Origin: a virus
Taxonomy: Duplodnaviria > Caudoviricetes
IMG/VR virus record: IMGVR_UViG_3300048895_000211
Coordinates: 1-29,981 of that record
Strand: one strand, 5' to 3'
Length of the DNA: 29,981 bases
Within the stretch, counting starts at the first letter, position 1. Each line of letters begins with the position of its first letter. The notes beneath the pieces are model-generated. The model searched no databases. It saw only the letters and a list, made by a program, of their open reading frames with translations, and was not told the DNA's origin. The position numbers and the translations under genes were made by a program. Of this stretch, positions 1,656 to 22,524 are shown one piece after another.

Positions 1656-2080
1656 CGCGCAGGCAGCTCGCAAAGCTTGTAGAGGCATGGCGCAAAGTGC
1701 TGACGCCCGAGTGGCGAATCACGCTCATGGACGAGCCGCCGCCCGATGAGGACATGGCGAACACTTGGGCCTGCTGCCAGACGAATGACGATTACCTCCA
1801 CATCAACGTCCACTTCACGGACGAGCTGCTCAAAGAGAACCATCGCAAGATCGAGATCACCGTTGTCCACGAGCTGCTTCACGCCATAACCCGCCCGTGG
1901 CGCCGCCTGGTCGATGCCGTAGAGGACGATCTGCCCGCTCGCGCTCACCGCGTCCTTACAAGCGAGCAAGAGCATCAGGAGGAGGCGTTCGTTGATCGTC
2001 TCTCATGCGTCATCGTCGCCCAAACTCACGGATCCGAAGCGTTCGGGACGATCGAGCGATCCAAGGACGACGAGGACTGA
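1652..2080 (+). CDS. Zincin-like (HExxH) metallopeptidase-domain protein
   Basis: VVHELLHA motif with a downstream EEAFVD as possible third ligand. Confidence 0.75.
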   Translation: MTRRQLAKLVEAWRKVLTPEWRITLMDEPPPDEDMANTWACCQTNDDYLHINVHFTDELLKENHRKIEITVVHELLHAITRPWRRLVDAVEDDLPARAHRVLTSEQEHQEEAFVDRLSCVIVAQTHGSEAFGTIERSKDDED

Positions 2081-2103
2081 GCGATGGCGCGAGGCCGGCG
2101 CTC
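2079..2103 (+). promoter_or_regulatory. C-GCGAG-G pentaloop hairpin covering the HNH-1 start codon
   Basis: GAGCGATGGC-GCGAG-GCCGGCGCTC; 9 of 10 pairs form, and ATG 2084 lies in the 5' arm. Confidence 0.55.
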
Positions 2104-2407
2104 GATCGGCGTCTGTGCAGAACCAGGCTGCCCAGAGGACGCCACAGACAACGGCAGGTGCGCGAAGCACCGCAAGCTCGTAGTCGGGACCGGCAGCCGA
2201 GGCTCCACTCGCCAGTGGCGCAAGACTCGAGAGCGAATCCTCGAGCGAGACGGCCACCAGTGCACCGAGCGATTGGACAACGGCGAACGCTGCCCGGTCA
2301 AAACGAATCTTCACGTCGACCACATCGAGCGCGTCACGGATGGCGGCTCAGACGAGGACGACAACCTACGGACGCTCTGTGCTTTTCACAACCTGAAGAA
2401 GGGCTGA
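2084..2407 (+). CDS. HNH endonuclease 1 (packaging-associated type)
   Basis: N-terminal CAEPGC..RCAKH, RQWRKTR..ILERD, and HVDHI...GGSD...NLRTLCAFHN. Confidence 0.92.
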   Translation: MARGRRSIGVCAEPGCPEDATDNGRCAKHRKLVVGTGSRGSTRQWRKTRERILERDGHQCTERLDNGERCPVKTNLHVDHIERVTDGGSDEDDNLRTLCAFHNLKKG

Positions 2408-3817: not shown

Positions 3818-4753
3818 GTGCCGCAGCCGAGACGAGGCTCGAAACGGAACGAACTCGAGCGAAAGATCCATTTCTACAGGGCCGACTGCGGCCAGGACAA
3901 AGCCGGGAAGCCCTACGCCTACAAACACGGCCCGGCTCTCGGTCACATCAACGAACTGTCGTTCACCGATTTCAAAGCGAGCGGTGGCCGCTATTTCGAA
4001 GATGTCGACAACGTCTACTGCTGTTGGGTCGAAAAAGACCCGAATAAGATCCGCTTCGCCGTCATCAGGCGCGACGCTTTTCCGCAGATCGAGGAAATGG
4101 GGAACGTCAGTCCTTTGACTGTTCCCGCAAACGCCGGCTTGGTCGAGATCATCCACGTCCGTTTCTTCCCGAAGAACATCGTCGGCTTCGACGCCAACTT
4201 CTACGGCCCGCGCCTGCCCCGCCTTGGCCGCTACATCAATCAGGTAGCTGCGGGCGTAGGCCAGCAGGTCAACTTCAATCCGCTAATGCGACAGGACGCG
4301 CTGAACGAATTGACCGGCAAGGATCTGCGCGTGTTCTCGATGCGGATCAAGCGATCCGAGATCGACACCGTCAAGCAGATCAGCGAATCCCTCGGAGCCG
4401 CCTTCGAAGCGACCGACAAGATCGGCCAGGCGGATGAGGTTCAGATCATCCTGCGCCCTAAGCCGTATTCGCGCGATTCCCTTGGCAAGAAACTGATGGA
4501 CGCGACCAAGAAGCTGGCGAAGCGCAAAGACATCGGTCAGTTGGCCAGCGAGTTCAAGGTTGACGTGATCGAGCCGGGCAAGGCTTCCCAGACCATCGAC
4601 CTTCTGGGCGACGCCTTCATCGCCGAGACGCGAATTCTGCGGCAATCCGCCAAAGGGCGCGCCTTGGAACCAAATGACGCATTTGCCAAGATCGAAGGAG
4701 CCTATGAAGACCGCAGACAGGAGCTTGAGAAAGCAGCCGCCCTGGATCTCTAA
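3818..4753 (+). CDS. 311-aa soluble protein, RexA/DUF6731/DUF4747-like; putative phage-defence sensor
   Basis: GGAGGA RBS; RKIHFY...IRRDAFPQIE...GLVEIIHVRFF...NFYGPRLPRLGRYI pattern recalled from DUF6731-like proteins; abuts a 4-TM gene. The ORF is clear, the family is inferred. Confidence 0.65.
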   Translation: MPQPRRGSKRNELERKIHFYRADCGQDKAGKPYAYKHGPALGHINELSFTDFKASGGRYFEDVDNVYCCWVEKDPNKIRFAVIRRDAFPQIEEMGNVSPLTVPANAGLVEIIHVRFFPKNIVGFDANFYGPRLPRLGRYINQVAAGVGQQVNFNPLMRQDALNELTGKDLRVFSMRIKRSEIDTVKQISESLGAAFEATDKIGQADEVQIILRPKPYSRDSLGKKLMDATKKLAKRKDIGQLASEFKVDVIEPGKASQTIDLLGDAFIAETRILRQSAKGRALEPNDAFAKIEGAYEDRRQELEKAAALDL

Positions 4754-5263
4754 GTGAGCCCACGCAAGGCGTGGGCCGCCAATTTCTTGTGGTGCGAGTT
4801 TGCGCTCGGCGTCGTGGTTGTGGTCGCTCTGATCGTCTGGTCCGAACTTCTTGGTGGCTCATCTCGTCTGGATGACTTTCTTGATGAGCACAGCGAAACG
4901 CTCTACATCGTTCTCGCGCCCATTACCGCTGCGATGCTGGGCTTCATCCTGGCGGCGGCGGCCATTGTCGTCACGTCGGCTCCGGCCGACCGCATGACGA
5001 TCTTGCGTGAAAGCCCGCACTACCCTCAGCTCTGGGCGACGTTCCGGTCGGCCCTCCGTTTCCTCGGATTCGCGACGCTCGCGGCGCTTGTTGGCCTCGT
5101 CGTTTCAGGGGAGATCGCGAGCCGGATCATCTTCTATGTGGCGGCAGGATTGGCTGGACTTGCCGCCCTTCGCACGGCCCGCTGCATCTGGGCAATGAAC
5201 TGGATGATCCACATCTTCACCGGTCCCTCCCCCGAGAAAAAGATCGAAGAAGATCTCGTGTAA
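4754..5263 (+). CDS. 169-aa four-TM membrane protein, RexB-like putative effector
   Basis: Four hydrophobic segments including AMLGFILAAAAIVV; the start directly follows the upstream stop. Confidence 0.7.
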   Translation: MSPRKAWAANFLWCEFALGVVVVVALIVWSELLGGSSRLDDFLDEHSETLYIVLAPITAAMLGFILAAAAIVVTSAPADRMTILRESPHYPQLWATFRSALRFLGFATLAALVGLVVSGEIASRIIFYVAAGLAGLAALRTARCIWAMNWMIHIFTGPSPEKKIEEDLV

Positions 5264-5304: not shown

Positions 5305-6246
5305 ATGCCACCGGCCAACCGCCACGAACCGCGTCGGGCCAAGTCCTCTCACTCGGACTACTCGGTCACTGAGTTCCTACGGGACTTCCCCGACGATACC
5401 GCTTGCCTGGAGCATCTCTGGCGGTCGCGCCACTCGCCGGATGGCGAACACGCCCACTGTCCGCGCTGCGAGGCTGAGAAGGTCTTCAAGCGCTACGAGA
5501 CCAAGCAGCAGCGCCAGTCTTGGACCTGCACGGCTTGCGGCCTGCACGTCCATCCCACGGCCGGGACGATCTTCCATCGCTCATCGACCTCGCTGCGGCT
5601 CTGGTTCCATGCCATGTACCTGATGACGAGCACTCGGTGCGGCATATCTGCCAAGCAGCTAGAGCGGGAGCTTGGGGTGCACTACAAGACCGCCTGGCGC
5701 ATGTTCAACAAGATTCGCAACGAGCTGATGAAGGACGACGCGAAGCCGCTCAAGGGCAACGTCGAGGTTGACGAGACGGGAGTTCACGGTCGTCCGCGAG
5801 GCCCGAGGATGAATCTCAAAGAAGCAGCCCAGTGGCGTCAGCGCCAGATCTCGGTGCTGGGCATGGTCGAGCGCGGTGGGCGGGTCAAGCTGCGCGTCAT
5901 CACGTCGCGTCGCGGTGAGCCGCTTAGTGGAGCCGTGAGGGCCAACATCAACCCGGACTCGATCATCTTCACCGACGACTGGCGCCCCTATCGGCCAGTC
6001 GGCCGCGAATTCGCTGGCCACCGGATCATCAATCACTCGGCGGGCGTCTACGTCTTGGGCGACACCCATACGAACACAATCGAGGGCTTCTTCGGCAACC
6101 TCAAGACCGGGATGCGCGGCGCCTACAAGAAGGTCTCCCGCAAGTGGCTCCAGTCCTACCTGGACGAGTACGCCTGGCGCTACAACCACCGCACGTACGG
6201 GCACCGCTCGATGTTTCACTCGCTGCTCGACGAGGCGGCGCGATGA
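5305..6246 (+). CDS. IS1595-family (ISXO2-like) DDE transposase
   Basis: Zn ribbon CPRC...CTAC, AGTIFH, GISAKQLERELGVHYKTAW HTH, VEVDET, IFTDDW, HTNTIEGFF, YLDEYAWRYN. Confidence 0.96.
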   Translation: MPPANRHEPRRAKSSHSDYSVTEFLRDFPDDTACLEHLWRSRHSPDGEHAHCPRCEAEKVFKRYETKQQRQSWTCTACGLHVHPTAGTIFHRSSTSLRLWFHAMYLMTSTRCGISAKQLERELGVHYKTAWRMFNKIRNELMKDDAKPLKGNVEVDETGVHGRPRGPRMNLKEAAQWRQRQISVLGMVERGGRVKLRVITSRRGEPLSGAVRANINPDSIIFTDDWRPYRPVGREFAGHRIINHSAGVYVLGDTHTNTIEGFFGNLKTGMRGAYKKVSRKWLQSYLDEYAWRYNHRTYGHRSMFHSLLDEAAR

Positions 6247-6446
6247 GCGAGGCGACCATCCTGCGGAGCATCAGGGGCGCGGCCAAACGCCGCGCCAGCG
6301 CTGACGCTGCCAAACGACAGGCGACCGAAGACCTACGGGGCTTCTGCCAACAAGCTCAGAAGGCGGGCGTCCCGATCACGAAGATCGCTTCTGAGGCCGG
6401 CCTTTCCCGCCAGGGCGTTTACGACCTGCTGGCGGAGCGACCTTAG
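6243..6446 (+). CDS. 67-aa HTH protein
   Basis: ATGA overlap with the transposase stop; GVPITKIASEAGLSRQGVYDLL. Confidence 0.8.
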   Translation: MSEATILRSIRGAAKRRASADAAKRQATEDLRGFCQQAQKAGVPITKIASEAGLSRQGVYDLLAERP

Positions 6447-8057: not shown

Positions 8058-8099
8058 GCTGAGCGCGATGCTCAGCAGGAAGGACGGGCGCGATGCCTG
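8058..8099 (+). promoter_or_regulatory. Double GCGAN-hairpin element flanking the RBS
   Basis: GCTGAGC-GCGAT-GCTCAGC AGGAAGGA CGGGC-GCGAT-GCCTG; ATG 8093 lies in the second loop. Confidence 0.8.
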
Positions 8100-8296
8100 C
8101 CACTGACTCCATTGAACTCAAGGATGTCCGCCGCCTCAATCTGAAACCCAACGACACGCTGGTCGTTCGACTTGACGATCCCTCCCAAGCGGAGATCGAA
8201 TCGATTGCTCATGGCCTCAAACGGTACTTCCCAGACAACAAGGTTCTGGTTCTGGCCCGGCTCTCCGAGATCGAAGTCGTTGAGGCGGCAGCATGA
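8093..8296 (+). CDS. Hypothetical phage protein
   Basis: AGGAAGGA RBS; VRRLNLKPNDTLVVRL; ATGA overlap with the next gene. Confidence 0.8.
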   Translation: MPATDSIELKDVRRLNLKPNDTLVVRLDDPSQAEIESIAHGLKRYFPDNKVLVLARLSEIEVVEAAA

Positions 8297-8661
8297 CCGC
8301 TTCCCGAGTTCAGACCAAAACCCCAATCACCGACCACCTCTGGGCCATCGGCTTCACCATCAAGCCCAAGGCAGACCGTCTCCCTGTAGAGATCGCGGAC
8401 GGCAACGGCAATACCTTCAAGACCAACTTCGAGATCACCGCCTACCCAGAACGAGGAGAAGCCCGCCGTCTCTTCGCAGCCAAGGGTCCATGCAGGGCAG
8501 AGGTCAAGAGCAACATCCCGCTTGGGAAGTTCGAGCGTGAGCAGCAGCTAGGCAGAACAGACCTCAAGGATCTCTACATCGAGCAGTGCGCCAAGCACCT
8601 GTTCGAGATGCTGAAGGGCGAGGCACCGACGATCAGTAAGCCAGCCGCATTGGCTGCATGA
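8293..8661 (+). CDS. Hypothetical protein
   Basis: Coupled to neighbours at both ends. Confidence 0.75.
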   Translation: MTASRVQTKTPITDHLWAIGFTIKPKADRLPVEIADGNGNTFKTNFEITAYPERGEARRLFAAKGPCRAEVKSNIPLGKFEREQQLGRTDLKDLYIEQCAKHLFEMLKGEAPTISKPAALAA

Positions 8662-8946
8662 ATGCTTCGAGCCTGCATCGACTGTGGTGCTCTTAGTGAT
8701 CGATCGCACTGCCCCAAGCACCGAGGCACTGATCGCAACGGCTCTACTCGTCAATGGCGGAAGACCCGAGCCGCAGTTCTGAAGCGAGACAACCATCGCT
8801 GCTTCTACTGCGGCAAGGGAGCAACGACCGTCGATCACCGTCGTCCCCTTTCAAGGGGCGGGAGCGATCACGAATCAAACCTCGTCGCTTGCTGCAGCGA
8901 ATGCAACGGAGCGAAGGGGGACAAGACACCGGCCGAGTTCGGCTGA
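8662..8946 (+). CDS. HNH endonuclease 2 (terminase-associated)
   Basis: CIDC..HCPKH, CFYC, TVDHRRPLSRGGSD..NLVACCSECN; immediately upstream of the terminase genes. Confidence 0.93.
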   Translation: MLRACIDCGALSDRSHCPKHRGTDRNGSTRQWRKTRAAVLKRDNHRCFYCGKGATTVDHRRPLSRGGSDHESNLVACCSECNGAKGDKTPAEFG

Positions 8947-8950
8947 CGAA

Positions 8951-8988
8951 CTGAGCGCGAGGCTCAGGAAGGACGGGGCGCGATGCCC
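8951..8988 (+). promoter_or_regulatory. Double GCGAN-hairpin element flanking the RBS (near repeat of 8059-8097)
   Basis: CTGAGC-GCGAG-GCTCAG GAAGGACG GGGC-GCGAT-GCCC; ATG 8983 lies in the second loop. Confidence 0.8.
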
Positions 8989-9069
8989 AACGCTGACCAC
9001 CCAGGGGGGGCACCCCCGGCTCGTTGTGTGACGGACACCCCGCAAAATTTCGCGCGCGCCGAGGGCTAG
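8983..9069 (+). CDS. 28-aa upstream ORF in frame with terS
   Basis: AGGAAGGA RBS; MPNADHPGGAPPARCVTDTPQNFARAEG*, then TTC and the terS ATG in the same frame. Confidence 0.45.
   Translation: MPNADHPGGAPPARCVTDTPQNFARAEG
9001..9060. other. Candidate cos / packaging-initiation region
   Basis: Lies between HNH and terS, as in HK97-like cos phages; GGGGGGGCACCCCC dyad and CGCAAAATTTCGCG. Confidence 0.4.
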
Positions 9070-9072
9070 TTC

Positions 9073-9483
9073 ATGGGACATGGGACAGACTTCGACCGCG
9101 CCAGCCCTCTCGTCATCGCGGCGGTCAAGGCTGGAGCGACCTTGGCGGAGGCCGCTCAGCGAGCCGAAATCACTGAACGCACTATCAAGCGCTGGCTCAG
9201 CAAGGGGCGCGCCGACAGCAAGTCCCCTCACGCGACCTTCGCCTTCGCGATCGACTTCATCCGCGAGTCGCGGGAAGCGTCGGCCGAGGGTGATGGCCCG
9301 GTCGATGACGAGGAGGTCCAACTCCACCTCTCCAAAGCAATTCGCAACGGCTCAGTCGCGGCGATGAAGGTGTGGACCGATGTCTACCGCAAGCAGGGTG
9401 ATGGCGACGGTGGCAAGAAACCGGCGGACCCGCTCGCAGGGCTAGACGAGTTGGCGGCCCGACGTGCCGGTGCAGGAGCTTGA
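9073..9483 (+). CDS. terS: Terminase small subunit (HTH-type), putative
   Basis: N-terminal HTH (TLAEAAQRAEITERTIKRW), C-terminal DPLAGLDELAARR, overlaps the terL start. Confidence 0.75.
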   Translation: MGHGTDFDRASPLVIAAVKAGATLAEAAQRAEITERTIKRWLSKGRADSKSPHATFAFAIDFIRESREASAEGDGPVDDEEVQLHLSKAIRNGSVAAMKVWTDVYRKQGDGDGGKKPADPLAGLDELAARRAGAGA

Positions 9484-10879
9484 TCTTTTCGCCAACTTCT
9501 GCGAGGAGGCCCTAACTCGCGAGGATGGCAAGCCGCTTCAGCTTCACGACTTCCAGCGGAAAATGCTGGACGATCTTTTCGCCGGGCGTCGCGAGACGCT
9601 CATCCTGATCTCCAAGAAGAATGGCAAGTCGACGCTGCTCGCAGCGCTTGCCCTCTTTCACCTCTGCACGACGCCGGACGCCGAGTGCGTCATTGCTGCG
9701 GCATCGAGGGATCAGGCATCAATCATGCTTCGCCAGGCCCAGGGCTTCATCCGCCGCTCGCCCTGGCTTCAAGAGCGGTGCCAGGTCAAGCAGCGCGAGA
9801 TCGCCCATAAAACGCTGGGCGGCCGAGTGCGGATCCTTGCCTCGGATGTCGATACGGCCGATGGCGTCATCCCAACGCTGGCTCTAGTCGACGAGCTCCA
9901 TCGCCACAAATCGACGGAGCTCTACGGCATCTTCCTCGACGGTCTCGGCCCTCGCGACGGGAAGATGGTCACGATCTCCACAGCCGGCGATGATGAGAAG
10001 TCGCCGCTGGGCGAACTCAGGGCCGCAGCCCACGCCCTTCCCGGACTCGTGCGAGATGGCGCCTATCGCTACGTCCGCACAGATGACTTCGTCATGCACG
10101 AGTGGGCTCTGGACCCTGACGAGGACCGCGAGGACATGGCGATCGTCAAGCTGGCAAACCCAGCGCCGTGGCACACGATCTCCGCCTTGCGGAAGCGCCG
10201 CCACTCGCCGTCAATGAAGCCGTGGCAGTGGGCGCGTTTTGCCTGCGGGGTTTGGATGGCGGGCGAGGAATCGGCGATCTCCGAGAAGGAGTGGCGAGCT
10301 TGTGCCGAGGCCGCCTGCGAGATCCCCGCGGACGCGGTGGGCGTCTATGTCGGCATCGACCTCGGCTGGAAGTGGGACACGACCGCAATCGTCCCGGTGT
10401 GGCGAGCGGATGGCTCCGACGTAGCGATTGTCGGGAAGCCAGTAATCGTGGTTCCTCCTCGAGACGGGAGCGCGACGGCATTTGAGCGGATATGGGAGCC
10501 GATTGAGGAGATCGCCTCCCGTTACTCCGAAGTGCAATTCGTGCTTGACCCGGAGGCTGGGGGCGAGCAGCTAGCGCAGCACATCGAGTCCGAACTGGGC
10601 ATCGAGCCGGCGATTCATTCCCAGAAGACGACGCCCATGCAGCTCGCGGCGCAACGTCTTTCGGAGGCGATCAGCGAGAAGCGCCTGCAGCACCCCGACG
10701 ACCCCGAGCTGAACGCCCACGTCCTTTCGGCCGCGGCAAAGCAGGAGGGCGAGCGGTGGAAGTTCGTGAAGGCCAAACGCAAGCGCGCACCGATCGATGG
10801 GGTGATTGCGCTTGCCATGGCGCACTCAACGCTCATAGCTGGCACCAAAAAGCGTAAATCGGGCATCAAGTTCTTCTAG
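9464..10879 (+). CDS. terL: Terminase large subunit
   Basis: LHDFQ, Walker A ISKKNGKST, Walker B LVDELH, ISTAG, nuclease GIDLG...D and IDGVIALAMA. Confidence 0.96.
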   Translation: MPVQELDLFANFCEEALTREDGKPLQLHDFQRKMLDDLFAGRRETLILISKKNGKSTLLAALALFHLCTTPDAECVIAAASRDQASIMLRQAQGFIRRSPWLQERCQVKQREIAHKTLGGRVRILASDVDTADGVIPTLALVDELHRHKSTELYGIFLDGLGPRDGKMVTISTAGDDEKSPLGELRAAAHALPGLVRDGAYRYVRTDDFVMHEWALDPDEDREDMAIVKLANPAPWHTISALRKRRHSPSMKPWQWARFACGVWMAGEESAISEKEWRACAEAACEIPADAVGVYVGIDLGWKWDTTAIVPVWRADGSDVAIVGKPVIVVPPRDGSATAFERIWEPIEEIASRYSEVQFVLDPEAGGEQLAQHIESELGIEPAIHSQKTTPMQLAAQRLSEAISEKRLQHPDDPELNAHVLSAAAKQEGERWKFVKAKRKRAPIDGVIALAMAHSTLIAGTKKRKSGIKFF

Positions 10880-10895
10880 CGATGGGAGCCGTTCC

Positions 10896-12341
10896 TTGTC
10901 AGCGAAAACGCCTGCGGCATGGCTCACCTACCTGGAGAAGAAGCTGGCAGCCCAACAGCGTGAAATTGAGATCTACGAGCGCTACTACAACGGGGAACAT
11001 CGGCTTGCCTTCGCCACCCTGAAGTTCCGCCAGTCCTTCGGGTACCTGTTCCGAGCTCTTGCTGATAACTGGTGCGAGATCGTGGTCGACGCGCCGGTTG
11101 AGCGGCTATTCGTTGAGGGTTTCCGGTTTGGCAAGGACAAACCCGCCGACACCAATGCCTGGGACATATGGCAGGCAAACGGTCTGGATTCCGAGTCCGT
11201 TATGGCCCACACAGAGGCTGTAAAAGACGGGCGCGCCTACATCCTGATCGGACCGGATGAATTCGAAACGGGTTTTCCGCAGATCACCGTCGAGCATGCC
11301 TCACAAGTCGTAGTGGAGCACGCCCCCGGCAATCGCCGCATACGCCTGGCGGCGCTTAAGAAGTGGCGCGATGACGATGCCTACGAATACGCGACCCTCT
11401 ACCTCCCAGATCGCATCTGGAAGTGGGAAACGAAGGAGCCGAGTAAGTATCCACCGAGTGACGGAATAGGCAAAAACTGGGTTCCTCGAGCCGGCGAAGA
11501 GTCTGGTCGCAACCCAACCGCGCCCAGCGTGCCAATGATTCCGCTCTACAACAACCCGACGATGCTCGGGGATGGACGCTCGGACCTCATGCCGGCGATC
11601 CCTTTGCAGGACGCGATCAACAAGGAGCTCGCGGACATGCTGGTCGCTTCGGAGTTCGCGGCGTTCCAGCAGCGAGTCATCACGGGCCTTGAAGTCGAGA
11701 GCGATAAAGACCCGGCAACGGGCGAAAACATCCCGGATCGCTCAATGGAACAAAAGGCTGCGGTCAACCGGATCTGGGCCCTTGAGAACGCAGATGCCAA
11801 AGTCTTCAGCCTGCCGGCATCCGATCTCGGCAACTACACGAAGGCGATCGAACTCCTCCTGCAGCACCTCGCCGCCCAGACTCGCACTCCGCCGCACTAC
11901 CTACTCGGGCAGATGGTCAACGTCTCTGGCGACGCCCTGAAGGCGGCCGAGACCGGACTTGTTGCCAAGGTCAAGCGCAAGCAGATCGACTTCTCGGATA
12001 GCTGGGAGGAGGCGATTCGCTTGGCGCTAAGGCTCAAGGGTGGCCGGCAGCCGGAGAAGCCGATGAACGCCGAGACCATTTGGCGGGATCCTGAGTATCG
12101 CTCCGAGGGCGAGCAGGTGGATGCTGCGTTGAAGCTGCGCGCCTTGGCCGTGCCGCTTGAGGCGCTGTGGGAGCGCATCGGCGCCTCGCCCCAGCAAGTC
12201 GAGGACTGGGCGAAGAAGCTCGATCTCCCAGAGCGAGAAGCGAGCGTCGATGCATCTGGCGAAGTCGCCGCCGCGCGCGCCACCGCTCCCGCAGAACCAG
12301 CCTTGCCTGCCGTCTCTGTCACAGAGCGCTCGCAGACCTGA
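10896..12341 (+). CDS. Portal protein, SPP1 Gp6-like
   Basis: YERYYNGEH, NWCEIVVDAPVERL, IWQANGLD, TRTPPHYL, NVSGDALKAAE; follows terL. Confidence 0.94.
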   Translation: MSAKTPAAWLTYLEKKLAAQQREIEIYERYYNGEHRLAFATLKFRQSFGYLFRALADNWCEIVVDAPVERLFVEGFRFGKDKPADTNAWDIWQANGLDSESVMAHTEAVKDGRAYILIGPDEFETGFPQITVEHASQVVVEHAPGNRRIRLAALKKWRDDDAYEYATLYLPDRIWKWETKEPSKYPPSDGIGKNWVPRAGEESGRNPTAPSVPMIPLYNNPTMLGDGRSDLMPAIPLQDAINKELADMLVASEFAAFQQRVITGLEVESDKDPATGENIPDRSMEQKAAVNRIWALENADAKVFSLPASDLGNYTKAIELLLQHLAAQTRTPPHYLLGQMVNVSGDALKAAETGLVAKVKRKQIDFSDSWEEAIRLALRLKGGRQPEKPMNAETIWRDPEYRSEGEQVDAALKLRALAVPLEALWERIGASPQQVEDWAKKLDLPEREASVDASGEVAAARATAPAEPALPAVSVTERSQT

Positions 12342-12358
12342 GGTAACCCCATCCAAAA

Positions 12359-12414
12359 GCCTCTCTCGCGAGGAGAGGGGCGCTAACAGGAAGGAACGAC
12401 AGTCGCGATGACTG
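12359..12414 (+). promoter_or_regulatory. Double GCGAN-hairpin element at the scaffold start
   Basis: GCCTCTCTC-GCGAG-GAGAGGGGC ... AGGAAGGA ... CAGTC-GCGAT-GACTG; ATG 12408 lies in the second loop. Confidence 0.8.
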
Positions 12415-12977
12415 AGGAGAACGCTGAGACGAAAGGCTCCGAGGAGGCCGCTGCGAAAGCTACCGCCGAGAAAGAGGCCGACGACAAAGCTGCTGCGGAA
12501 GCCGCGAAAGCCGACGCAGGAGACGAGATCGACGCCGAGCTTCTGGAAGACGCTCGCAACCCCGATGCGGTCAAAAAGGCCATCCAGACCGAGCGTGAGA
12601 ACGCGAAGGCCGCGAAGAAAGCGGCCGAGGACGCCTCCAAGGAGGCCGAGGCCCTTAGGGCCAAGGTCCAGGAGTTCGAGGACCGCGACAAGTCCGAGCA
12701 GGAGAAAGCCGAACAACGGGCGGCCGATGCTGAGGCGAAAGCCGAGAAAGCGGAGAAAAAGCTGCTCCGACTCACCGTCGCAAGCGAGAAGAAGCTGCCA
12801 GCCGAATTGGCCGATCGCCTCCAAGGCGAGACACAGGCCGAGCTAGAAGCCGACGCCAACAAGCTCTTGAAATGGGCGAAGGCGGAGGACTCCGTAAGTG
12901 TCGATGGTGGCGCTCGGAAATCCACCAAATCGCCCGAAGATATGAACGCTCGAATTCGAGCCGCCGCAGGCCGCTAA
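12408..12977 (+). CDS. Capsid scaffolding protein
   Basis: A/E/K coiled coil, DKSEQEK, LADRLQGETQAELEADA, C-terminal DMNARIRAAAGR; between portal and capsid. Confidence 0.9.
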   Translation: MTEENAETKGSEEAAAKATAEKEADDKAAAEAAKADAGDEIDAELLEDARNPDAVKKAIQTERENAKAAKKAAEDASKEAEALRAKVQEFEDRDKSEQEKAEQRAADAEAKAEKAEKKLLRLTVASEKKLPAELADRLQGETQAELEADANKLLKWAKAEDSVSVDGGARKSTKSPEDMNARIRAAAGR

Positions 12978-13015
12978 GTCTTACCGCGCCTCCGGCGCGC
13001 CTTGATTCACCTTCG

Positions 13016-13060
13016 CCCGCCGGTCGCGACGGCAGCGGGTCACCCCCTCCGCGATGGAGG
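13016..13060 (+). promoter_or_regulatory. Two GCGAN hairpins in the capsid gene leader
   Basis: CCCGCcgGTC-GCGAC-GGCaGCGGG and CCTCC-GCGAT-GGAGG, upstream of the AGGAG RBS and ATG 13098. Confidence 0.7.
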
Positions 13061-13097
13061 TCATCGAATCCATCCCGAATCACAGGAGTGACCCCAC

Positions 13098-14035
13098 ATG
13101 GCGTATGAAAACGCGATCAATCGCACCGATGCCCAGGCACTTGTGCCTGAGGAGGTATCGAATGCGATGCTCAAGAAGCTCAGCGAACAGTCGGCGGTGC
13201 TGTCCCAGTTCACGCGTGTGCCGATCTCGCGCAGTCAGGAGCGCTTCCCGGTGCTCTCTGCCCTGCCGCTCGCCTACTTCGTAACCGGTGACACCGGCCT
13301 CAAGCAGACCACCGAGGCGAGCTGGAAAAACAAGTACCTGAACGTCGAGGAGATCGCGTGCATCGTGCCGATCCCCGAGGCAGTTCTGGATGACCAGACC
13401 TACGACATCTGGGGACAGATTCAGCCCCTCATGGAGCAGGCAATCGGCCGTACGCTCGATGCTGCTGTCTTCTTTGAAGTCAACAAGCCGGAAACGTGGC
13501 CGGAAGGCATAGCCAAAGCGGCTGCGACCGCAAACGCGGCACGAACGAAGCCAAAACCGGCGGGATTGTCGGCGACTTCTCTGACGCCTTCGCTGAGGTG
13601 GAGTCGAGCGGCTATGACGTGGATTGGGTCGTAGCCCTCCGCAAATACAAGGGGTACCTACGTCAGGCACGTGCTACCACGGGCGAGTCGCTGATAGAGC
13701 CGGACGACGGCCAGGTCAATTCCAAGGAAATCTTCGGGGTGGGCGTCCAGTTCCCCATGAAGGGACTCTGGCCGACTGGTTCGGGTGCCGTTGAGGCGAT
13801 CGTGGGCGATCCCTCTGAGCAGGTTGTGGGCGTTCGTCAGGACATCACCTACAAGCTGCTGGACGAAGCGGTGATCCAGGACTCTGAGGGCAAAATCGTC
13901 TACAACCTGGCCCAGCAGGACATGGTCGCGATGCGCGTCGTTTTCCGGGCCGGTTGGGCGACCGCCAACACGATCAACTACGAACAGCAGGACGAATCGA
14001 AACGGTACCCCGCTGCCGTCATCGTCGCCCCGTAG
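13098..14035 (+). pseudogene. Major capsid protein (HK97 fold), split by a -1 frame change near 13530
   Basis: N half (ALVPEEVS...EEIACIVPIPEAVLDD...LDAAVFF) is in ORF 13098..13634. C half (RGTNEAKTGG...VGVRQDITYK...NLAQQDMVAMRVVFRAGW) is in ORF 13496..14035. Confidence 0.88.
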
Positions 14036-14041
14036 TTGTCC

Positions 14042-14260: not shown

Positions 14261-14662
14261 ATGAGCGATCTCGCTCCACGCACTGAGAAGTTGACCGCCG
14301 ATATCGACGCGACTGCCAAAGGTTCTGACGCCGAGGTTTCTGTTGGTGCCGTGCCTTTTGCGGGGTCGGTAACCAGCGTTACCTACACGGCCGTCTCGAA
14401 AATCACAGGGGCGAACACCAATAGCCGAACCCTGAAGCTCATCAACGTCGGCGCGTCCGGTGAAGGCACCACGGTCGTCGCCGAACTGGCGCTGGTCTCT
14501 GGTGTCAATGCGTTGTCTCTCGACGAGACCGCGCTGACGCTTGGGGAAGCTAAAAAAGTTGCCGTTGCCGCTGGAGATGTCTTGGCGTTCAAGTCCGAAC
14601 ACGTCGGTGAAGGCTTGGCCGACGTTGGCGGTGAGATCACGGTTAAGGTCGCCCGCGCCTGA
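14261..14662 (+). CDS. Beta-rich virion protein, possible head decoration protein
   Basis: AAGGAG RBS; A/V/T/G-rich beta pattern (PFAGSVTSVTY...VAAGDVL); just after the capsid gene. Confidence 0.7.
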   Translation: MSDLAPRTEKLTADIDATAKGSDAEVSVGAVPFAGSVTSVTYTAVSKITGANTNSRTLKLINVGASGEGTTVVAELALVSGVNALSLDETALTLGEAKKVAVAAGDVLAFKSEHVGEGLADVGGEITVKVARA

Positions 14663-21987: not shown

Positions 21988-22524
21988 ATGGCGGATACCG
22001 CCGCGATCGAGGACGCCGTAAGCGACGAGCCGACGTCCGTAGGAGAACCCAAAAGCATCGCAGAGGATCTGGTTGCAAAGCGCGAGCAGCTCAGCAAAGA
22101 GCGTGAGCCAAAGATCTTCGACCTGCCTGGCTATGGCTCAGCGCTCCAGGTCAAGTACCGCGTTCCGACACGAACCGAGGCCAAGGAGGCCAAGGGGCTG
22201 GTCTTCAAGCTGGCGAGCGCAGGCGAGGAGGACGCCGACATCGTTGGCATGTGCAAGCTCCTAGCCTTGGCCTGCGTCGGCTTTTACGAGGAGAAAGACG
22301 GCACCAGCGTCTTGCTCAACGAGAGCAGGGGCCTCGGGGACGATCCGATTCGTTGGGGTGATCAGCGCCTTGCTGACCTCTTGGCCATCGAAGTCGAGGG
22401 CAGGCTTCGCGCCCGGTACCTGATCGAACAGGTGTTGGCAACGCCTGAGCGGATCGAAATTCATCACAACCAGGTCACCAACTGGGCCGATCGTGCGTTG
22501 GAGGCTGACGACGCCGATTTCTAG
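21988..22524 (+). CDS. Tail assembly chaperone (short form)
   Basis: AGGAAGGA RBS; acidic; lies between tube and tape measure. Confidence 0.8.
   Translation: MADTAAIEDAVSDEPTSVGEPKSIAEDLVAKREQLSKEREPKIFDLPGYGSALQVKYRVPTRTEAKEAKGLVFKLASAGEEDADIVGMCKLLALACVGFYEEKDGTSVLLNESRGLGDDPIRWGDQRLADLLAIEVEGRLRARYLIEQVLATPERIEIHHNQVTNWADRALEADDADF

Follow-up and report, generated by a model that had tools for sequence, protein, structure and literature searches.

The window analysed here, that is, the whole stretch of 29,981 nucleotides (nt) at positions 1 to 29,981 of the IMG/VR virus record IMGVR_UViG_3300048895_000211 (Caudoviricetes), carries a phage late operon, and its closest genome match is L103, a prophage in a metagenome-assembled genome of the Solirubrobacterales. 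Along this operon, short hairpins with a GCGAN pentaloop closed by a C-G pair recur near gene starts. This report deals with these hairpins, above all those in the leader of the gene for the head scaffolding protein (scaffold), and with one N-terminal helix of the scaffold with which their loop letters co-vary. Genes and sites are listed in Table 1.

Table 1. Genes, hairpins and candidate regulatory elements of the window (SD, Shine-Dalgarno sequence; ORF, open reading frame; uORF, upstream ORF; HTH, helix-turn-helix; aa, amino acids)
Feature	Position	Strand	Basis or comparison
Late operon: HNH, terS, terL, portal, scaffold, capsid, contractile tail			30-kb virus record
Hairpin over HNH-1 start, AUG 2084 in 5′ arm	2079..2103	+	Fold; lost in L103
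Tenth hairpin, C-GCGAA-G, 5 Watson-Crick pairs, inside HNH-1 coding sequence	2157..2171	+	Hairpin scan
Operator pair A: hairpin, SD, hairpin, AUG 8093 in loop; duplicate of pair B	8058..8099	+	Fold; present in L103
Coupled ORFs under pair A: 67 aa, 122 aa, HNH endonuclease (94 aa)	8093..8946	+	
Operator pair B, AUG 8983 in loop	8951..8988	+	Equivalents in L106, L108, L004; degenerate in L013
28-codon uORF, ends 3 nt before terS AUG	8983..9069	+	Same length and gap in L013
terS (HTH, phrog_4102), terL (phrog_9), portal (phrog_104)	9073..12341	+	PHROG matches
Scaffold operator: 9-bp hairpin 12359-12381, SD, 5-bp hairpin 12400-12414, AUG 12408 in loop	12359..12414	+	Fold
Head scaffolding protein, 189 aa	12408..12977	+	phrog_1793, E 5e-16
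Candidate RNA-reading element, scaffold residues 48-75 (NPDAV..A..ER segment)	12549..12632	+	Loop-helix co-variation
Putative two-state capsid leader: GCGAN hairpins 13016-13039 and 13046-13060	13016..13097	+	Fold and comparison
Major capsid gene (phrog_10)	13098..14035	+	PHROG match and comparison with L105

A Conserved Hairpin Class over Ribosome-Binding Sites

A preliminary description of the window had listed nine hairpins tipped by C-GCGAN-G. All nine stretches read as described and fold as hairpins, and the layout hairpin - AGGAAGGA - hairpin with an AUG, which had been noted for three sites, is present at 8058, 8951 and 12359. The heptamer CGCGANG alone occurs at chance level (56 in the window versus a mean of 58.07 in 100 shuffles). 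The hairpin-embedded form is enriched, with seven copies on the plus strand at a stem of at least 5 bp, G-U allowed, versus a mean of 0.60 and a maximum of 3 in 300 dinucleotide shuffles, and ten copies at a stem of at least 4 bp versus a mean of 1.64 and a maximum of 5; one copy with at least 5 bp lies on the minus strand. Since the pattern used in this shuffle test was picked post hoc, it is the comparative data that carry weight.

The expected positional conservation was indeed observed, the motif being widespread at the scaffold leaders of actinobacterial phages. Among 88 distinct scaffold loci picked by protein homology (each with at least 260 nt of upstream sequence; L579 stands outside all counts), 50 carry at least one hairpin and 32 at least two (stem of at least 4 bp, 380-nt leader window), versus 93 and 7 of 2139 background windows; the opposite strand of the leaders yielded 3 and 0. 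A scan of IMG/VR with a stem-free tandem pattern returned at least 120 loci, eight of them with both stems of at least 4 bp, and all eight are scaffold starts from several PHROG families, three of the eight loci repeating leaders already in the set. As 112 of the 120 loci found with this first loose pattern were noise, it was discarded. With a second, partly stem-specified pattern (119 loci), scaffold-family matches were obtained for 31 of 45 ORFs with a first stem of at least 4 bp versus 4 of 32 with weaker stems. GCGA hairpins are also carried by the cultured phages ZoeJ, Fionnbharth and Hum25.

An in-frame AUG lies in the loop in 64 distinct leaders among the 87 loci whose scaffold has the type-A helix described below, and 62 of these 64 leaders possess an upstream hairpin copy 24-48 nt away (24-39 nt in 61 of the 62). 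Arrays of two to four copies occur, some within the 5′ coding region. In 62 scaffold leaders chosen on loop sequence only, the 310 pairs at stem positions 2-6 of the upstream copy comprise 256 Watson-Crick, 27 G-U, 8 A-C and 19 other combinations; position 2 holds a Watson-Crick pair in every leader, with all four types represented, and the fifth loop base is free (G in 30, C in 16, U in 14 and A in 2). The scaffold operator of the window is likewise kept in relatives with altered stems, which agrees with the preliminary view that stems differ while pairing is retained. The sites at 8058 and 8951 are not independent: a single 40-nt leader is present twice, at 8058-8097 and at 8951-8987, with 87.5% identity. 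The C-GCGAN-G hairpins are thus a conserved class of RNA operator positioned over SD and AUG.

Rfam searches, run at E ≤ 5 for the window and E ≤ 1 for 16 related loci, gave no match at the sites and none to RF02991 or RF03003. Two further arrangements were noted in relatives: in L068 (6889-6930 and 7094-7141) a second copy of the operator precedes a 58-aa ORF that is inserted ahead of the scaffold gene, a duplication like that at 8058/8951, and in L146 (1500-1532, minus strand) one GCGA hairpin, an SD and a CGCGATG start precede a head maturation protease gene.

Not every copy belongs to this class. The site at 2079, over the HNH-1 start, is lost in L103 though the HNH-1 region is 91.5% identical, and the tenth copy sits within a coding sequence and has identical letters in L103, the encoded protein being 95% identical there. 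From this comparison, the HNH-1 hairpin is probably incidental and HNH-1 not a target; HNH genes were rejected as regulon members because they are not conserved as such. Nor are matches inside coding sequences limited to stems of 3 bp or fewer, as had been stated for those checked: that at 2161 has five Watson-Crick pairs, that at 4070 four with G-U, and that at 22411 (minus strand) five with G-U. A match at 14041 was rejected as an operator, as it belongs to a terminator-like hairpin.

Loop Class Follows One Scaffold Helix

Scaffold leaders without GCGA bear other repeated C-XXXXN-G loops, namely C(A/U)GG (CWGG), GCAA, GACA and GUGA, and each loop goes with a particular helix type. LG..G.KAL..ER, or NPDAV..A..ER in the window, is paired with GCGA; K..LR.E and K.N.EA are paired with C(A/U)GG; WKAL.R.HE is paired with GACA (5/5), its ..RQNE variant in L078 having GAAA; and VK.AL.KAN is paired with GUGA or GCGA. 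In the AlphaFold model of the window's scaffold, which is largely one helix (predicted template modelling score 0.37), residues 48-75 fall at the N-cap and opening turns of a helix, predicted with confidence, that spans residues 52-127. A fold search with this model returned no solved-structure match at E ≤ 0.001.

Loop class was predicted by nearest neighbour for the 106 labelled loci out of 188, excluding C-terminal kin at 0.45 or above and leaving out rare classes. The 28 residues of the helix gave the right class in 98 loci, compared to 71 for the adjacent middle part and 64 for the C-terminal part of the scaffold, the base rate being 74, and seven 28-residue C-terminal windows in 51-65. 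Capsid predicted the loop in 48-60 of 96 loci (helix 87-88), portal in 42-49 of 66 (helix 61) and terL in 34 of 51 (helix 46), none of them exceeding the base rate; moreover, GCGA is found with many unrelated capsid clusters, and several capsid clusters contain both loops. Capsid, portal, terL and terS were rejected as readers since none of them predicts the loop.

A held-out set of 53 loci from bacterial genomes and cultured phages gave a consistent picture. With helix classes set before these loci but the regular expression finalised after viewing them, the GCGA hairpin was found in 15/15 type-A '..ER' helices versus 1/32 other helices, and CWGG pairs in 0/15 versus 10/32. A prospective scan for C(A/U)GG pairs returned 123 loci, 30 of them with both stems of at least 4 bp, and recovered 18 scaffold starts, 5 terS and 2 capsid genes; the type-A helix is present in 0/21 scaffolds of the pair-scan loci. 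In the CWGG class, the SD lies in the loop and the 3′ arm.

The correspondence extends to single letters. Within type A, '..ER' goes with GCGA in 88/89 loci (29 of them motif-selected) and '..WK/MK' with GCAA in 7/7, the latter being a post hoc grouping. A two-residue change in the helix (ER to WK/MK) is accompanied by the exchange of one loop base in the two hairpins together, as in the sister loci L563 and L566. Seven cultured phages were examined after the ER/MK rule. GCAA was found in all three MK-type phages (Kromp, Dubu and AGM1); GMA4 and Poushou have C-CAGGA-G, with one 3-bp copy in Poushou; xhp1 (WKALSRQNE) has GAAA beside GCAA and GUAA; and P318 (WKALSRKNE) has two CCGAAATGG below the stem threshold. 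A search of cultured phages with one CWGG-type query gave no match. Scaffolds with an 'I..RL.RE' helix (L394, L397, L399, L403, L406, L407 and L411) have none of the C-XXXXN-G pentaloop arrays, and their leaders may hold a different cognate motif.

Terminase-Side Operators

The pairs A and B lie on the cos side, the uORF behind pair B spanning a G/C-run region that we take to be cos-like. Such pairs head chains of abutting ORFs leading into terS in the window, L103, L106, L004 and L013 (with degenerate hairpins in L013), a chain of this kind being doubtful in L108, and by this gene order they would act on short ORFs coupled to terS. In the distant phages L280, L284, L300, L309 and L351, the pair is located directly in the terS leader; the phrog_226 proteins of L309 and L431 match Pfam Terminase_7. 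Different terS/terL types, and unrelated short ORFs that mostly start with Met-Pro, follow one and the same operator pair (L103, L106 and L004 versus the window and L013), which thus persists through module swaps.

Terminase-leader loops sit 4-5 kb from the scaffold loop of the same phage, and the two agree: both are GCGA in L284, L309, L351, L280 and L300, CWGG in L430/L431, G402, G403 and G404 (pairs), G405 (single) and GMA4, and GCAA in Kromp and AGM1. A stretch of 10 kb in G404 contains just four CWGG hairpins, those of the terS and scaffold pairs. As the same terS families (phrog_226 = PF25673, and phrog_1496) occur with both GCGA and CWGG loops, a phage factor that acts in trans and changes together with the scaffold helix is required.

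The Capsid Leader

The leader of the capsid gene differs from this pattern. The AUG in the loop at 13050 is not that of the capsid gene, which starts at 13098, and in L003 it is replaced by ACG. Hairpin 13016-13039 has just three contiguous pairs, and both GCGAN hairpins are mostly unformed in the default fold, where helices 13037-13043/13088-13094, adjoining the SD at 13084-13088, and 13053-13058/13069-13074 compete with them. In the 13 close relatives compared, pairing in the two hairpins is complete (100% of 104 cells), with one covarying pair and an invariant second hairpin. A helix of 7-9 bp between the 5′ flank and the SD-AUG region is found in 13/13 of these leaders; in L099 and L102 it is changed on both sides and takes up the hairpin 5′ arm and the SD. 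Eleven of the 13 have a stretch complementary to loop and 3′ arm at 6 of 6 bases. In the default fold the second hairpin is hidden in 11/13 (probability under 0.35), and a bonus of 4 kcal/mol usually restores it. On these folds, the capsid leader is likely a two-state switch rather than a hairpin burying the AUG. That scaffold binding would flip it towards more capsid translation, the more probable direction, is in our view rather less likely than not.

As a wide motif, the capsid-leader pattern was rejected: it returned 45 loci, 8 in the close clade and the rest unrelated, with L242 and L272 preceding a non-head gene. In two satellite-like modules of L540 (G406; 2847-2879 and 11936-11968), a capsid gene is preceded at a distance of about 85 nt by tandem C-CUGGA-G hairpins, as also in L471 and L472. 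No scaffold match was found in L540, a 14% complete record. The modules possibly copied a helper's operator.

Proposed Mechanism and Alternatives

With a probability of about 0.74, we propose that the hairpins are messenger RNA (mRNA) operators co-varying with the scaffold helix, and that free scaffold binds them and keeps ribosomes from loading at its own gene and at the ORF chain leading to terminase. Scaffold is the likely ligand because the loop letters co-vary with one N-terminal helix of this protein. The first four loop bases would adopt a GNRA-type tetraloop fold while the fifth is flipped out, and a scaffold dimer or oligomer would grip the tandem hairpins. Binding of the tandem loops by the helix of unassembled scaffold would block 30S loading at the scaffold and terS-side starts; prohead assembly would titrate scaffold away and lift the repression, so that scaffold and packaging motor would be made in proportion to the assembling heads. 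The same binding at the capsid leader would flip its two-state structure. A regulon read by free scaffold, as put forward in the preliminary description, appears favoured by the tracking of loop and helix and by the match of terS and scaffold loops, once HNH-1 is dropped and the cos-side and capsid details are amended.

The reader might instead be another phage product, such as a small ORF or a MuF/protease protein, with scaffold only a co-factor and the leader and scaffold 5′ end inherited as a block. Leader and helix codons are closely linked, tree support for independent switches is weak, and the predictors compared were scaffold segments, capsid, portal, terL and terS. We still regard such a reader as unlikely, given that neighbouring scaffold segments predict the loop far worse than the helix, that the ER to WK/MK change goes with one base in both hairpins, L563/L566 included, and that the capsid, portal, terL and terS families fail as predictors. 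Alternatively, the hairpins could bind scaffold for the sake of assembly, tethering nascent scaffold to head-gene mRNA and nucleating the prohead co-translationally. Arrays of two to four copies that reach into coding regions, capsid-leader copies that leave the capsid AUG unburied, and hairpins that form without ligand would all suit this idea, which is nonetheless improbable given how strongly they are placed at the ribosome-binding site (64/87 type-A loci have the AUG in the loop, and CWGG-class leaders have the SD in loop and 3′ arm) and given terS-leader copies far from capsid synthesis.

Host or purely structural control would mean that stable GNRA-like hairpins damp translation, or serve a host RNA-binding protein, a nuclease or boxB-like antitermination. 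GCGA does fit GNRA, and boxB pentaloops are read by N peptides (PMC12550061, excerpt). This explanation is very improbable, because phages of one host genus have different loops (GCAA in the Streptomyces phages Kromp and Dubu, C-CAGGA-G in phiScoe10), the same slots are filled by non-GNRA loops, and loop class follows a phage protein segment at sites on start codons. That the motifs are DNA palindromes acting as double-stranded DNA operators or packaging signals has next to no likelihood: pairs A and B adjoin the cos-like region, but the arms vary freely with pairing kept, G-U outnumbers A-C by 27 to 8, and only one strand is involved.

Several observations weigh against scaffold as the repressing ligand. 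The scaffold-leader hairpins already form without ligand in folding, so repression would have to be steric. The codons of the helix lie 100-250 nt away from the leader, so that linkage could account for some of the co-variation; a tree of the post-helix part has 18 label changes, only 3 of them forced by strong (starred) branches, and three independent switch pairs give a sign-test p of 0.25. At a stricter terL-kin cut (0.4), the helix recovers only 1/7 CWGG loci. Helices outside the type-A rule occur in 6/67 GCGA loci, one GCGA hairpin is present in 8/42 non-A discovery loci, and 70/188 loci are without a loop call. The window's helix is poor in arginine (1 R and 5 K in residues 48-75). The terS-side site is optional, with pairs in 6/36 motif-positive loci versus 0/15 in a fixed window, and no terS-side pair was found in Dubu, xhp1 or ZoeJ. 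The 4 kcal/mol bonus has little effect at the capsid leader: SD-AUG accessibility increases slightly in 7 or 11 of 13 leaders, depending on the context, and in the window's own leader the SD becomes less accessible when the longer context is used.

A wider reading, to which we give somewhat less than even odds as a whole, treats scaffold helix and pentaloop as an exchangeable recognition code, in which ..ER would read GCGA, ..WK/MK GCAA, WKAL.R.HE GACA, WKALSR.NE GAAA, VK.AL.KAN G(U/C)GA, and K..LR.E / K.N.EA C(A/U)GG. Free scaffold would then repress scaffold and terminase and switch on capsid as a general head-assembly checkpoint, and satellites with capsid genes would have copied the helper operator.

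Other Features of the Window

Near 13531, the window is 13 nt shorter than the otherwise identical contig L105, and this gap splits the capsid gene, which in L105 is a single 316-aa ORF. A programmed frameshift was rejected, as 9/9 related copies checked have a single ORF of 316-317 aa. Besides these 13 nt, the window differs from L105 by about 78 additional nt in a 133-aa gene (14310-14387); both length differences are either assembly differences or variants. At 3818-5263 and 5305-6446, ahead of the late genes, a low-similarity cassette of two genes, with a weak RexA-like match and a hydrophobic 169-aa ORF, adjoins an IS1595-family transposase that is accompanied by a small HTH gene; the cassette is a candidate defence moron. 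A related transposase is present in L013 in the opposite orientation. A strong hairpin cluster at 596-720 (-68.7 kcal/mol over 131 nt) occupies an apparent non-coding stretch, also upstream of the late genes.

Comparison with Known Systems

No description of this motif or of the loop-helix code was found in the literature covered, which left out most subscription papers. Targets of CsrA/RsmA have GGA in a hairpin loop, and ANTAR dual stem-loops have two hexaloops with G at loop positions 1 and 4. The GCGAN loops are without GGA, and the sister CWGG class has it but follows the scaffold helix; in place of hexaloops there are five-base loops, with the Watson-Crick pair at position 2 in 62/62. 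MS2-type coat-protein operators and RegA have an abundant or structural phage protein that represses translation at a hairpin holding the start codon, and boxB lies in a nut site with boxA, away from start codons, and is read by the separate N protein. Like the former, and like autoregulation by T4 gp32 (PMC10690425, excerpt), the mechanism proposed here has a phage protein repressing at a start-codon hairpin; it differs in concerning head assembly of a double-stranded DNA phage, in its multi-gene reach and in a specificity that the helix would encode.

The boxB elements of lambda, P22 and phi21 are short hairpins with GNRA-like pentaloop variants read by cognate helical peptides (PMC12550061, excerpt). 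Our hairpins are short, and their loop sequence is compatible with GNRA (GCGA plus a free fifth base), but they overlap SD and AUG, the variable base is the fifth (predicted to be of the n5-n6 insertion type if GNRA-folded), the proposed reader is a structural protein, and the output would be translation rather than antitermination. No search was made for boxA or an N gene, and the sites coincide with SD/AUG. Structured RNAs directly upstream of scaffold-type genes are also known: these are GP20-a (RF02991), GP20-b (RF03003) and further candidate RNAs that precede GP20 and DUF4355 genes, with DUF4355 listed as the downstream gene for six of the candidates; DNAVirus_416 comes from Enterococcus phages (Fremin et al. 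2023, PMC10690425, excerpt). In that excerpt they are given without a reader. Our motif has no Rfam match; overlap with one of the other candidates is possible. In cluster K actinobacteriophages, the start-associated sequence (SAS) is a 13-nt asymmetric motif at translation starts, and the extended repeats (ESAS) do not support RNA pairing (PMC3203893, excerpt); the word scaffold is absent from the main text. Both are repeats at translation starts of actinobacterial phages, and cluster K phages ZoeJ and Fionnbharth bear GCGA hairpins too, but the latter are of other sequence, have covarying stems and lack the 13-nt consensus. Nothing specific was found in an excerpt of PMC3185693 or by a main-text term search of PMC5737381.

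The closest precedent is the P22 scaffold (gp8), which is autogenously regulated, its own synthesis being lower when capsid is missing (PMC5529062, excerpt, citing Casjens & Adams 1985 and Wyckoff & Casjens 1985). Here, too, the controlled gene is a head scaffolding gene (phrog_1793) with a cis site at its initiation region, hairpins lying over SD and AUG; homology between gp8 and the window's scaffold is not claimed. In contrast to P22, the putative operator here is a tandem pentaloop of defined form; it is present at terS and capsid leaders as well, and it varies together with a helix that can be swapped. Scaffold autoregulation is thus known from P22, and the operator and the loop-helix code would be new. 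If correct, our proposal would define both the operator and the binding element of an autoregulation that has been known since 1985 and extend it to the packaging motor; the helix/loop pairs would be orthogonal by evolution, testable in cultured ZoeJ, Kromp and GMA4, and could provide new peptide-RNA tags and translational switches for actinobacteria.

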